Source: a virus
Direction: 5' to 3' (one strand)
DNA length: 64,000 nucleotides
IMG/VR virus record: IMGVR_UViG_3300045999_009338
Coordinates: 1 to 64,000 of that record
Part shown: positions 51,721 through 54,654 of the stretch, piece after piece
How the letters are laid out: each line of letters opens with the position of its first letter
Numbering within the stretch: position 1 is the stretch's first letter
The notes under the pieces: generated by a model
Told to the model about the DNA's origin: nothing
The model's input: the letters and a program-made list of their open reading frames with translations, nothing else
The model's database searches: none
Position numbers and translations under genes: made by a program

Positions 51721-52878
51721 TCTTGATATCATTTTATAACACTACCGTTTTATGATTTTATGCGCATATGCGCATATGCCGATATCGTTGTATGCGCATA
51801 GCCGCATAGTAGTACAGCCGTACTGCAGTACAGGCGTACTTGTGCCAATCCTCGGATCGTCCACTGATACCGATACGTACCAGTATCGGCAGCCGCCTGC
51901 GATCCGCAGCCGTATCGGCAAGCGGTCCTGATCTGCGTTCGTAGCAGCTCACGCCAGTGATCACGATCGTGATCAGCCAGCCACTGCCGTTCTGCGTTGG
52001 TAGCGGCCTGTGCCAGTGATCAGCATTCTGATCAGCCAGCCCTACGGTTTTGCGTTCGTGCGGCCTGCGCAGCGTGATCAGCAGCGCAGGCCCTGGCTGC
52101 TGTCGTTCCGCATCCGCACCGTCAGGCGGGGCTGTTCCGCATCGATGCCAGCCCTTAACCTTTGTTCCGCATCCACACGGCCTGCCCGTGCTGATCAGCA
52201 GCACGGCCCCCAGGCCGTGCCCTTCCGCATCCGCAGCAGTGGACGACGTGCCGATTGGCCTAGTTGACAAAGCGGCAGGCGATGCCGTACGTGCGCGCGC
52301 GATCGTTCTATGGGAGCCAGCAAGGCGGCATTGATCAGCGCAGCTTGTCATTTCAGGCGATTCCAGGCACTGATAAGCGTATCCGCTTATGCGTGGCCTT
52401 TTCAGCCCTGCCCTATCCGCATGGCTTATCTCAGTGCCTTTTGCCGGTTAAGCGGCGCTGATCGCTGATAGGCTTTGCCCGAACCTTGAAAACCTGACCA
52501 AGCGACCGCGCCGGAGGCATCTCCCGCGCGATGGCCGCGCTGTGCGCGGCGCCACTAGCTAAGGCGCGATGCCGGAGGGTCATTCCTCCCTAGTGGTCTG
52601 GCGGAGCGATCCGCCTTTTGTTCTCTCGCTTTTGTTCCTATGCGTTCTCTCCTCCTTACTGGCGCTCTCGCTCTCACTGGCGGAGCTCTCGGTTTTTGTG
52701 CCTCCTCCTATGGCGAGCGGATTGCGTTCTCCTCCTCTGCCAAGGCCGCCGCTCCTTTTGCCGCTCCTTTTGCTCTTTTCGCGGGAGGCTCTGCCGCAGC
52801 GCTCTCGCTTGCCATGGCAGCCGCTACCGAGCGGCTCTGAGCTCTCCTCTGTTCTCTGTTCTCTCACCGTTTTTCGCT

Positions 52879-53637
52879 ATGGCTTCATTCAGTTCTGCCT
52901 GTTCTCTCCTCTCCTCCTCTTTTGTTTCCAAGGAGAGAGACAATGGAGAGCGGTTCTACTGCCTCTCAGACTCTGCGCCAGACTGGTGCTCTACTGCCGT
53001 GATGCTGGCTCACGATGATGAGCTTCCCAATGACTCCCGTTATGAACTCACCCGGGACGCTGCCATTGCTCTCTCTGATCAGGAGTTTGATTCCGCAGAG
53101 GATGCGCAGGAGGCTCTATGGGAGCTCTCTTGTGATCTGCTGCCGAGCTCTACTGCTGCTCTCCTGCAGTGGTTTGCTGATCGCCCGTCCCGTCTCTCGG
53201 ATTGCGACGATGCCCTAGAGGAGCTCGGCTCCTCTGACTCCTATGGCTCTATCTCTGATCTCTTAGAGCTCGGACACAGGAGAGCCTCCGAGAGCGTTCT
53301 CTCTGTTCTCATCGCAGAGATCGAGGAGAACCGTGAGAGCCTGTTCAATCCGGAGGAGGATGCCCGGCTCCTCCTCTCAGACTCACACGGGATATATATC
53401 CCGCAGCTCTACTGCCAAACCCTTTCAGAGGAGGAGGCAGAGGAGAGCGGCATCTCCTGGGAGGATGTTCTCCTCTGCCAGCAAGGCCCTGAAGAGGAGC
53501 TCTACTGGGAGGCATGGCAACAGATCTGCGATGCCGCGGAATGGGAGGAGGATGGAGAGATGTGGCGTCTCCTGCAGAATGGCGACCTCTGGCAAGTGAG
53601 AGCCGATGCCGTCATTCCGGACGAGTGGTTCTCGTGA
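52879..53637 (+). CDS. Highly acidic two-domain protein, Ocr-like DNA-mimic candidate
   Basis: D/E-rich; 'EALWELSCDLLPSSTAALLQW...CDDALEE' resembles the T7 Ocr helical pattern; ATG at 52879. Confidence 0.55.
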   Translation: MASFSSACSLLSSSFVSKERDNGERFYCLSDSAPDWCSTAVMLAHDDELPNDSRYELTRDAAIALSDQEFDSAEDAQEALWELSCDLLPSSTAALLQWFADRPSRLSDCDDALEELGSSDSYGSISDLLELGHRRASESVLSVLIAEIEENRESLFNPEEDARLLLSDSHGIYIPQLYCQTLSEEEAEESGISWEDVLLCQQGPEEELYWEAWQQICDAAEWEEDGEMWRLLQNGDLWQVRADAVIPDEWFS

Positions 53638-53837
53638 GGCATCGTCTCCCGCTCTCTCGCTCCGAGAGCCCATATCTGGCCTGGGCTCTCTCTCTCGCTC
53701 TCTCGCAGTGTGAGCCAGAGGAGGAGGAGCTCCTCCTCTCTCTCCTCTCTCGCTGCGAGGCTCTCGCTCCTTACGCTCCTCTGCGCTCTCTCTCAGACTG
53801 GCGCTCCTCTGTTCTCTCTCGCTCCTCATCTCTCTAG
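53634..53837 (+). CDS. Small Leu/Ser-rich hypothetical protein
   Basis: GTGA overlap; fills the gap between the two acidic genes. Confidence 0.35.
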   Translation: MRHRLPLSRSESPYLAWALSLALSQCEPEEEELLLSLLSRCEALAPYAPLRSLSDWRSSVLSRSSSL

Positions 53838-53841
53838 AACC

Positions 53842-54654
53842 ATGCTCGCAACCATGCTCGGATCCTCTCAGCTCCTCTCCTCTGTTCAATCTCTCTCAGA
53901 GCTCTCTGGGGAGTGGTTTTTCTATGAACCACGGCAGGAGATAATGCGCTCCTCTGACTACTGTTCTCCCATCGAATGGCGGCAGCCGTCTCCCAATGAA
54001 GCTGAGAGCCTCTCGCTAGGAGAGCTCTCCTCCTACTCCCTAGAGCTCTGCAGAGAGCTCGGCTCCTCCGTGACAAAGGTCACGCCAGAGGAGGCAGTTA
54101 CGCTTCTGTGCGAGCGCAAGCTCTGGAAACAATGCTCCCTCCTCTGGCTCTCCTCTCACTGTATGGGAGGAGATTATTGTGGCTCTACTCACAATATTGC
54201 TAACGCTCGCTATCTCCTCCAACGGTTCTCCTCGCCAGAGCTCAGAGAATGTGGCGGAGGCTATGGGAGCCAAGGAGTCATTGTCGACCCTCGCTATCTC
54301 TCAGAGGAGCTCCTAGAGCTCCTGCAAAGCCTTGAGAACTATCCCGTTCTCTGTGAGGATGAGCTCTCCTCCTACGAGCTAGAGCTCCAAAACGAGATGT
54401 GGGAGGATACAGTGCGCAGAGAATGGGAGAACGTTCTAGAGAGCGCTCTCTCCTCTCTCCTCTCAGACGAGGAGCTCGCCGAAACCATCGTAGAGAGCCT
54501 CTCAGAGGAGAGCCTATTCTCCCTGTTCTCCCATTGCGCTGAGCTCTCTAATGCCTACTGGGAGGCAGAGACTGGCACCACTATGTGGATAGACGTCGAT
54601 CGCGTCGCTGAGAGCCTCTCAGAGGAGCTCCTCTCCTCGCTCCTCCCTTCCTGA
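53842..54654 (+). CDS. Acidic hypothetical protein
   Basis: 'LENYPVLCEDELS..ELE...EMW' motif; very Glu/Leu/Ser-rich. Confidence 0.6.
   Translation: MLATMLGSSQLLSSVQSLSELSGEWFFYEPRQEIMRSSDYCSPIEWRQPSPNEAESLSLGELSSYSLELCRELGSSVTKVTPEEAVTLLCERKLWKQCSLLWLSSHCMGGDYCGSTHNIANARYLLQRFSSPELRECGGGYGSQGVIVDPRYLSEELLELLQSLENYPVLCEDELSSYELELQNEMWEDTVRREWENVLESALSSLLSDEELAETIVESLSEESLFSLFSHCAELSNAYWEAETGTTMWIDVDRVAESLSEELLSSLLPS

Follow-up and report, generated by a model that had tools for sequence, protein, structure and literature searches.

A CT/AG nucleotide code laid over a putative early anti-restriction cassette of a freshwater cyanophage

We analysed a 64,000-nucleotide stretch of viral DNA (IMG/VR record IMGVR_UViG_3300045999_009338, positions 1 to 64,000; hereafter the window), the opening part of a 75,373-bp phage genome that consists of a single contig. 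The element under study is an island at 52590-54654 in which several small genes and their leaders are saturated with CTC, GAG and related words. The island is subject to a nucleic-acid-level constraint, a bulk property that extends over all reading frames and the leaders and is maintained by selection. A full-text search of the literature found no description of such CT/AG recoding in phages. To the word saturation already reported in a first-pass annotation made from the sequence alone, the present analysis adds a context grammar, synonymous turnover in relatives, unbiased homologues, a second cassette type and a suspended purge of restriction palindromes.

The phage gene set includes a major head protein, tail genes, a primase-helicase, a ribonucleotide reductase and a terminase, together with a Sak annealing protein, a PD-(D/E)XK nuclease, ThyX and a dCTP deaminase. 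Among named phages, the Synechococcus siphovirus S-CBS4 is the closest to it (86% identity in the head protein), and the phage is a freshwater cyanophage of the cyanosiphovirus type. The public sequencing runs that contain the stretch are for the most part metagenomes of lakes and other fresh waters; a few come from wastewater. No DNA match to the stretch was found in the phage collection searched, and the matches of an Rfam scan of 51-57 kb were all below threshold.

Genes and features of the island

Four genes in the same orientation make up the island, which is an accessory cassette that is shuffled horizontally (Table 1). At its 5' edge, the hairpin and the T-run that follows it look, from their sequence, like a terminator or an attenuator.

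Table 1. Features of the island and its surroundings, in window coordinates, and islands of the second type in the numbering of the relatives' loci
Feature	Position	Strand	Basis or remark
5' edge and leader	52590..52639	+	Hairpin 52600-52615 GGCGGAGCGATCCGCC then TTTTGTTCTC, then CT-rich leader; terminator-like in scan
Small hydrophobic open reading frame (ORF), 66 aa, Ala/Leu/Gly-rich	52640..52840	+	ORF and homologues
Pyrimidine-rich spacer 5' of orfA start codon	52841..52878	+	Sequence
orfA, 252 aa, net charge -45	52879..53637	+	Start codon set by alignment with relatives
orfC, 67 aa	53634..53837	+	GTG start overlaps orfA stop (GTGA); conserved in relatives
orfB, 270 aa, net charge -33	53842..54654	+	Conserved family; island ends at its stop
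66-aa gene of normal composition	54673-54873		Inside terminator-bounded unit
Strong intrinsic terminator closing the transcription unit	54924..54943	+	Terminator scan
Class-2 islands	L033:3761-7040, L052:1961-4420, L059:6321-9200, L063:7761-11220, L065:4841-8280, L109:1901-5680		Composition

The AlphaFold2 model of orfA has a mean predicted local distance difference test score (pLDDT) of 88.6. Compared with 48,161 chains, its residues 51-158 best match T7 Ocr (1s7z_A; 101 of 106 residues, root-mean-square deviation 3.0) with a Z of 6.9, which for a helical domain stays below 8; the runner-up reaches Z 4.5. The domain is strongly acidic (25 D+E against 7 K+R, net -18 over 108 residues), and the model points to an Ocr-like helical fold. 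Foldseek returned no match for orfA. No Pfam family, including Ocr (PF08684), was matched at E up to 1 by orfA, its halves, 18 family members or 2 distant homologues, and a profile search of PDB sequences gave nothing at E up to 10. The C-terminal domain (residues ~164-250) matches phrog_21544, which is found in jumbo phages.

OrfB belongs to a family of 126 homologues with many invariant residues; its model (pLDDT 85.7) has no structural match above Z 4.4, and searches of the same phage collection and of 185,579 prokaryote species genomes found no match or homologue. A search of the ESM Atlas likewise gave nothing. The counterparts of orfC are coupled to orfA in three relatives (L020, L003 and L031). 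Its N-terminal half is conserved (..YxxWALExxL..EPEEEELLLSL..), and its tail is Ser/Leu-rich and unconserved and makes the pyrimidine tract ahead of orfB. OrfC also holds an 18-bp palindrome, GAGGAGGAG/CTCCTCCTC, at 53721-53738, and then a 22-nt pyrimidine run. For the small hydrophobic ORF, Pfam and PHROG searches gave no match and an alignment-based search was unproductive; homologues in L032, L033 and L109 (53-61% identity) share an invariant AAPFAAPFAL core. Pfam, PHROG and structure comparison identified neither a methyltransferase nor any other modification enzyme among the proteins of this cassette.

Downstream of orfB, the 66-aa gene is probably a recent insertion, because the closest relative, L001, holds other sequence there (54654-54879 gives no blastn alignment to it). 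CCCACA(AGCG) repeats follow this gene at 54873-54910.

Word saturation and context grammar

CTC makes up 9.5% of the island's trinucleotides, or 95/kb against 12/kb elsewhere, an eightfold excess over the rest of the genome. Longer words follow the same trend: CTCTC occurs 58 times (28/kb against 0.8/kb elsewhere), CTCCTC 33 times (81-fold), TCTCTC 25 times, GAGAG 17 times (9-fold) and GAGCTC 20 times. A falls to 17% from 26%, C rises to 31.5% from 23%, and the GC content is 58% against 49% genome-wide. The codons shift towards CTC, GAG, TCC, ATC, ACC, GTC and CAC; GAG encodes 87% of Glu (34% elsewhere), CTC 71% of Leu (14%) and TCC 37% of Ser (12%). Glu, Leu and Ser together account for 44% of the residues of the island proteins. 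Both edges are sharp, with the rise beginning in the leader and the fall coinciding with the orfB stop codon at 54654, beyond which gene 54673 is normal. The first-pass annotation had described the saturation, the change in Glu, Leu and Ser codons and the abrupt end of the bias, and on these points it was right; most of the DNA that it took to be intergenic is, however, coding (52640-52840 and 53634-53837 are ORFs conserved in relatives).

Two null models were used to assess the bias. Null A keeps the amino acids fixed and applies the genome's codon usage; null B permutes synonymous codons within each gene and so keeps the island's codon usage. Under null A, 186 CTC words are seen where 44.7±6.5 are expected, with CTCTC at 55 against 5.3 and GAGCTC at 19 against 1.7. 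Under null B, CTC is still in excess (146.9±4.9 expected, z 8), as are GAGAG (17 against 5.0) and CTCCTC (32 against 15.8). Thus, the bias is real and well beyond chance, and codon shuffling leaves neither amino-acid composition nor codon usage as its explanation. CTC is spread over the frames, with 77 copies in frame, 35 in one shifted frame and 74 in the other (frame 2), and the excess that remains after null B is due to codon context.

This context dependence amounts to a grammar. In eight islands of the window's type, described below, the words that exceed null B are CTC, AGA, GAG and TCT, followed by AGAG, CTCT, TCTC and CAGA and then by AGAGC, CTCCT, CTCTC, CAGAG and GAGAG; CGA, TCG, TCGA, CGAG and CTCGA are the most strongly depleted. 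The base chosen in third position varies with the codon that follows: if that codon starts with GA, C-ending codons drop from 54% overall to 17% and A-ending ones climb from 5% to 36%. Before GAG, Leu is written CTC in 0 of 65 cases, CTA or CTG being used, whereas before a T-starting codon it is CTC in 84%. The island text consists of CT runs and AG runs joined as AG-CT, CT-AG, CA-GAG or TG-GAG, never as TC-GA. Purine and pyrimidine runs exceed the null B lengths (runs of at least 8 nt number 27 in the window, with 22.8±2.4 expected, and reach 41 in relatives, with 26.5 expected), although the mean run is still 2.6-3.0 nt. At 53717-53751, a 13-nt purine run stands beside the 22-nt pyrimidine run (53730-53751). 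These runs were compared with triplex-forming H-DNA, which consists of mirror-symmetric homopurine·homopyrimidine tracts of about 15 nt or more. No 10-11-bp phasing was found in the island once the signal was controlled.

The grammar also bears on translational selection, under which early genes would use the codons best read by a GC-rich host tRNA pool before the phage tRNA is available. The direction of the codon shift agrees with this idea, as does the near loss of TTA and TTG in a phage that encodes a tRNA-Leu(UAA) (62092-62165, minus strand), these two codons making up 27% of Leu codons genome-wide and 1% in the island. However, Asp, Asn, Tyr and Gln show no shift, CTG is used for 12% of Leu against 19% and is thus not favoured, the excess words also occur out of frame and in the leaders, null B contradicts it at z 8, and the neighbouring codon steers codon choice. 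GAG and GAA, CTC and CTT, and TCC and TCT are each read by one tRNA per pair in most bacteria, which also counts against this explanation. We regard it as very improbable.

The bias is strand-specific: the pyrimidine-rich, A-poor strand is the sense strand. AAAA falls 13-fold, to 0.5/kb in the island from 6.7/kb, whereas TTTT is not depleted (5.8 against 5.2). In all relatives, pyrimidines make up 76-84% of the linker tracts before orfB, where CTC:GAG ratios reach 34:2, and 57-84% of the other island segments, where CTC greatly outnumbers GAG. Runs of four or more A/T bases occur at 14.5/kb in the island against 64±18, and the word TANNNT at 2.9/kb against 8.2/kb.

Lysine is scarce in the cassette proteins (52879-54651), with 3 of 481 residues, or 0.6% against 4.8%, and Asn is halved. 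The scarcity of Lys fits A avoidance together with acidity. Such a Lys-poor operon would be translated nearly without tRNA-Lys, which is the target of some defences triggered by anti-restriction proteins (PrrC and PARIS).

Several other candidate features were considered and set aside. Dual or overlapping coding was rejected on the grounds that off-frame stop codons are at or above null B in five islands. Perfect palindromes as the selected unit and GTTCTC as a motif were rejected as well, the enrichment of the former being limited to the window's own clade and the latter being confined to it. Hardening of the template strand against ultraviolet light is contradicted by the positive enrichment of GAG and AGAG. 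Self-targeting adenine mutagenesis leaves the preference for CTC over CTT and CTG unexplained, and no reverse transcriptase was seen.

Relatives, a second cassette type and restriction palindromes

Eight independent relatives found in viral metagenomes, whose proteins are 52-91% identical, keep islands with the window-type cassette, hereafter class 1, with the same sharp edges and context rules. Between the window and its closest relative, the synonymous divergence (dS) is 0.37-0.41 in the island and 0.11-0.26 in the flanks, and the ratio of nonsynonymous to synonymous divergence (dN/dS) in the island is 0.12-0.18. The bias persists in relatives whose synonymous sites are saturated, and the invariant Leu and Glu residues are also written CTC and GAG. 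The proteins are thus conserved and the synonymous sites turn over while the composition stays the same, which points to selection on a bulk property. This turnover speaks against fixed binding sites, fixed structures and a decaying relic. Low cover of the island beside well-covered flanks in two samples (X15 and X16; Logan contigs) was not counted as evidence.

The same comparison makes an origin without function, either as the relic of a foreign donor or through a local mutational bias (slippage or transcription-associated damage), distinctly improbable in our estimation. The higher GC content, a dS above that of the flanks and the proneness of CT tracts to slippage all agree with it. What speaks against such an origin is an equilibrium bias across relatives with saturated synonymous sites, in two unrelated gene sets, with flanking genes on the same strand left unbiased and with invariant Leu and Glu residues conforming to the rule. 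Moreover, no single mutation type yields CTC on both strands, and no homologue turned up in the prokaryote genomes searched.

Unbiased homologues separate the code from the proteins. An orfB homologue at L101:10055-10804 (same in L105; 35% identity) uses CTC for 12% of Leu and GAG for 24% of Glu; its E/L/S content is similar to that of orfB and its composition is ordinary, so that the cassette proteins do not need the bias. Standalone Ocr-like homologues in L009 and L012, likewise unbiased, contain 1.8-5.1% Ser, compared with 18.6% in the island domain, and by this comparison the nucleotide code does alter the amino acids, Ser being the one most clearly inflated. The Ser/Leu swelling that the first-pass annotation had noted is thereby borne out, as is its proposal of a second code laid over the acidic genes: the code overrides codon choice, depends on context and not on frame, and is kept in the eight relatives and missing from the homologues in L101 and L009/L012. 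Neither of the outcomes that the annotation had named as its refutation is seen. Its suggestion that the code consists of dense binding sites fares worse, at least for sites at fixed positions, given the raised dS at unchanged composition.

We surveyed the locus through the upstream flanking gene (51141-51440), which yielded 80 loci, 58 of them with at least 3.5 kb downstream. Nine of the 58 carry islands, two of class 1 and seven of a second type (class 2), which occupies the same locus and is built of unrelated genes. The class-2 islands in Table 1 include one cut by a contig end (L063), and a further one (L060) was seen in part only. Six class-2 islands span 2.5-3.8 kb and are more extreme than class 1, with A at 9-11% and CTC at 11-13% of positions. 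They encode a 372-aa GP88-family protein (PF17338, E 2.6e-9) and several small conserved proteins, and the small hydrophobic ORF is the sole gene that they share with class 1. By this gene content, the code is a property of the cassette and not of a protein family. Since it is kept around unrelated genes, the DNA or its RNA is under selection; since most relatives have no island, the code does not serve a function that the locus cannot do without, of the kind an origin or a pac site would have.

The mosaic make-up of the cassettes raises the possibility that the code serves evolvability, in that a low-complexity alphabet with polypyrimidine linkers would provide microhomology for shuffling between co-infecting phages by the Sak protein and the PD-(D/E)XK exonuclease, both of which this phage encodes. 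In L024, orfB is 84% and orfA 54% identical to its window counterpart, L031 has an additional 91-aa gene, and L029 has orfC after orfB; the presence of islands in 9 of 58 relatives and the limited overlap of the two classes agree with such shuffling. However, this would be second-order selection, which could hardly hold a codon-by-codon bias and context rules across coding sequences, invariant residues included, and it does not predict the strand asymmetry. We consider it rather unlikely.

The islands differ from the remainder of these genomes in their restriction palindromes. Outside the island, counts fall far below the expectations of a maximal-order Markov model: the other 73 kb hold a single GAGCTC where about 20 (19.8) are expected, and CAGCTG (0 against 21.7), GGGCCC (1 against 11.6), GTGCAC (1 against 8), ATGCAT (4 against 21.5) and ACGCGT (0 against 8) behave alike; ACATGT and CTCGAG are also purged outside 52500-54700. 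The purge is clade-wide for GAGCTC, CAGCTG, GGGCCC, GTGCAC, ATGCAT, ACGCGT and ATCGAT, and weak for CTCGAG (51 against 67.7). S-CBS4, which lacks an island, has a single GAGCTC, and island-less relatives (665 kb) have 30 GAGCTC against 208 expected, a sevenfold deficit, and 0 CAGCTG against 203. Only strict palindromes are hit, and the degenerate specificities GDGCHC, CYCGRG and SAGCTS were accordingly rejected; ACRYGT is likewise not purged as a class. AAGCTT, with 101 copies outside the island, is apparently a sink for NAGCTN words.

Inside the islands this purge is suspended. Class-1 islands contain 99 GAGCTC against 97 expected and 10 GGGCCC against 8.0, whereas their flanks contain 2 GAGCTC against 19.8. 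In class-2 islands, GAGCTC (90 against 80), CTCGAG (67 against 63.5), ATCGAT (10 against 10) and GTGCAC (6 against 2.6) are likewise present, and the flanks are purged. Relative to null B, GAGCTC reaches a z of only 0.7-2.6 in the islands. After GAG, 73% of Leu codons are CTC, a higher share than elsewhere, and nothing suggests that this junction is avoided. These phages thus resemble others in avoiding restriction sites across genome and clade, and differ in islands that hold the sites at the frequency predicted by composition. Because one synonymous change would remove a site, the sites in the island carry no detectable net cost. There are three candidate reasons: the benefit of the code per word may exceed the cost of restriction per site; the cassette's sites may always be linked to their own anti-restriction genes, the core recombining into cassette-less backgrounds; or the island DNA may be physically or chemically shielded.

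These counts also largely refute the other half of the first-pass proposal, a collapse onto few words that removes the sites of host nucleases until the DNA mimics are made. The number of distinct 6-mers does fall, to 1617 from 2249±72 in equal-sized controls, and the rest of the genome does avoid palindromes strongly. The fall is a mere 28%, though, and palindromic 6-mers are no fewer in the island than in controls (19 against 16.2±3.5). GAGCTC, which ranks among the sites purged most strongly in the clade, crowds the island with 20 copies, and class-2 islands hold CTCGAG, ATCGAT and GTGCAC at neutral frequency. The scarcity of CTCGAG in class 1 goes with the lengthening of purine runs by an A or G ahead of GAG and need not reflect restriction; as proof of restriction acting inside the island it was set aside, being part of a general rule by which TCGA and CGA are depleted and purine-ending codons precede GA. 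We give nuclease avoidance hardly any weight.

The object of selection

We tentatively favour the sense-strand transcript of an early anti-restriction operon as the selected object, while judging this reading to fall somewhat short of probable. It is favoured because the bias is strand-specific and spans the operon from the leader to the last stop codon of the cassette, because A-runs, A/U-rich runs and -10-like words are removed and the folding energy is lowered, and because CU-rich tracts precede the start codons. The minimum free energy per 150 nt is -55 kcal/mol in the island, -48.7±1 under null B and -41±4 in the genome. Such an mRNA would offer few A/U-rich single-stranded stretches and almost no promoter-like A/T words, its GAG and CUC words could pair into stable G:C-rich helices, and the CU-rich tract ahead of each start codon would suit initiation independent of a Shine-Dalgarno sequence. 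Cyanobacterial RNase E cuts single-stranded A/U-rich RNA (PMC10939160), and duplex formation shields transcripts from RNase E during cyanophage infection (PMC3113571). On this proposal, the benefit per word would override codon choice, inflate Ser and Leu and outweigh the cost of GAGCTC; the permanent linkage of the cassette's sites to its anti-restriction genes would be the alternative explanation of the missing purge. An RNase E encoded by the phage itself was considered and rejected, the homologue of S-CBS4 gp086 having no Pfam match.

The early anti-restriction role of the operon is suggested by the modelled Ocr-like fold, the strongly acidic proteins and the loss of TTA and TTG. This codon loss fits expression of the cassette before, or independently of, the phage tRNA.

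A number of results weigh against selection on the transcript. The folding signal is mostly compositional, since dinucleotide shuffling leaves the island a mean z of only -1.4, where controls lie between -0.3 and -1.35, and the stability of the sense strand is matched by that of the antisense strand. The share of paired bases (0.61 against 0.60±0.03) is unremarkable, and predicted unpaired AU-rich sites, at 19/kb the lowest of the set, come near to two control genes at 23-24/kb. GAG and AGAG are positively enriched, which plain A avoidance leaves unexplained, and an RNA account alone does not explain a suspended palindrome purge, which is a matter of DNA. Finally, most relatives have no island.

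Because of these weaknesses, selection at the level of DNA stays a serious rival, if an unlikely one in our view. The purine·pyrimidine runs and the CTC/GAG duplex would then be the selected features, protecting the cassette against restriction and further nucleases as a substrate of a modification enzyme or coating protein or by a non-B form. On double-stranded DNA, CTC and GAG are the identical word; the clade-wide purge is suspended in the islands of both classes, GAG-CTC junctions are not avoided, and long runs such as those at 53717-53751 are present. Yet no modification enzyme was identified in the class-1 cassette, and a GAG/CTC modification acting in trans would protect GAGCTC outside the island too, where it is purged. 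The strong and consistent asymmetry, with the sense strand always pyrimidine-rich, is also unexpected, most runs are short, and a 10.5-bp phasing is not established.

A more specific and less likely proposal is that the CT/AG code marks restriction-proof DNA, through a cassette-encoded or injected factor, a modification keyed to CTC/GAG or a non-B structure. If true, it would account for the islands being the one place where GAGCTC and other palindromes are not purged, and it would represent a new anti-restriction principle, in which anti-defence genes are armoured by their own sequence.

Whether transcript or DNA is selected, a nucleotide rule is at work in two cassettes of unrelated genes that is strong enough to cancel restriction-site avoidance and to change amino acids. 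Phage anti-defence genes are usually read as proteins only; here, a nucleotide rule governs whole cassettes. The reader of the code, for which an RNase, the ribosome, a modification enzyme and a nuclease are candidates, would act on anti-defence operons at the start of the contest between phage and host. CT/AG islands may also provide a homology-free signature for new anti-defence cassettes in cyanophage metagenomes.

Known systems share some features with the island. The highly iterated palindrome HIP1 (GCGATCGC) of cyanobacteria likewise overrides codon choice at high density, GAGCTC occurring at ~10 per kb in the island. The island effect is local (2-3.8 kb) and not genome-wide, however, and GAGCTC shows no excess over that expected from the CTC and GAG words (99 against 97), the selected units being CT and AG runs. 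A strand-specific purine/pyrimidine bias that overrides codon choice is also known from Szybalski's rule and from the mRNA of the EBNA1 Gly-Ala repeat, where the purine bias of a viral immune-evasion gene acts at the mRNA level. In contrast, the sense strand of the island is loaded with pyrimidines, and the bias, found in a phage, extends over several complete genes with their leaders. A parallel at the level of RNA is the evasion, by duplex RNA in cyanophage-infected cells, of an endonuclease directed at A/U-rich single strands (Stazic et al. 2011, PMC3113571); separate antisense RNAs form the duplex there, whereas here it would be the mRNA's own composition, for which the computed evidence is modest.

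The likeness to T7 gene 0.3 Ocr, a dimeric mimic of bent B-DNA that inhibits type I restriction or BREX, consists of the superposition of orfA residues 51-158 (Z 6.9) and strong acidity. OrfA differs in having no sequence match to Pfam Ocr or to any PDB chain, in the fusion of its domain to the phrog_21544 domain and in residing in a cyanosiphovirus. As in the early anti-restriction region of T7, a small operon lies behind a repeat-rich non-coding tract; nothing in the sequence places the island locus at a genome end or makes it the first to enter. To our knowledge, T7 0.3 shows no comparable CT/AG recoding.

The non-coding tract itself (51700-52570) is made of short-word blocks: TATGCGCATA, GTAC, about eight TGATCA(GC) interleaved with GTTCCGCATCCGCA, ATAAGC/GCTTAT and CGCG. 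The TGATCA clusters are reminiscent of the P1 pac site, and candidate roles for the tract are those of an origin, a pac site and a regulatory platform. In relatives, it is occupied by fast-changing tandem arrays (L026:4470-4800, ~13 copies of 26-bp units; L032:1985-2085, 3 copies of ~39 bp), followed by a shared CCCATAGGCTGAGC and a leader rich in TGATAAGGC/CTTATC. Directly downstream of the transcription unit, at 55208-56753, lies a minus-strand gene of 329 aa with flanking hairpins.

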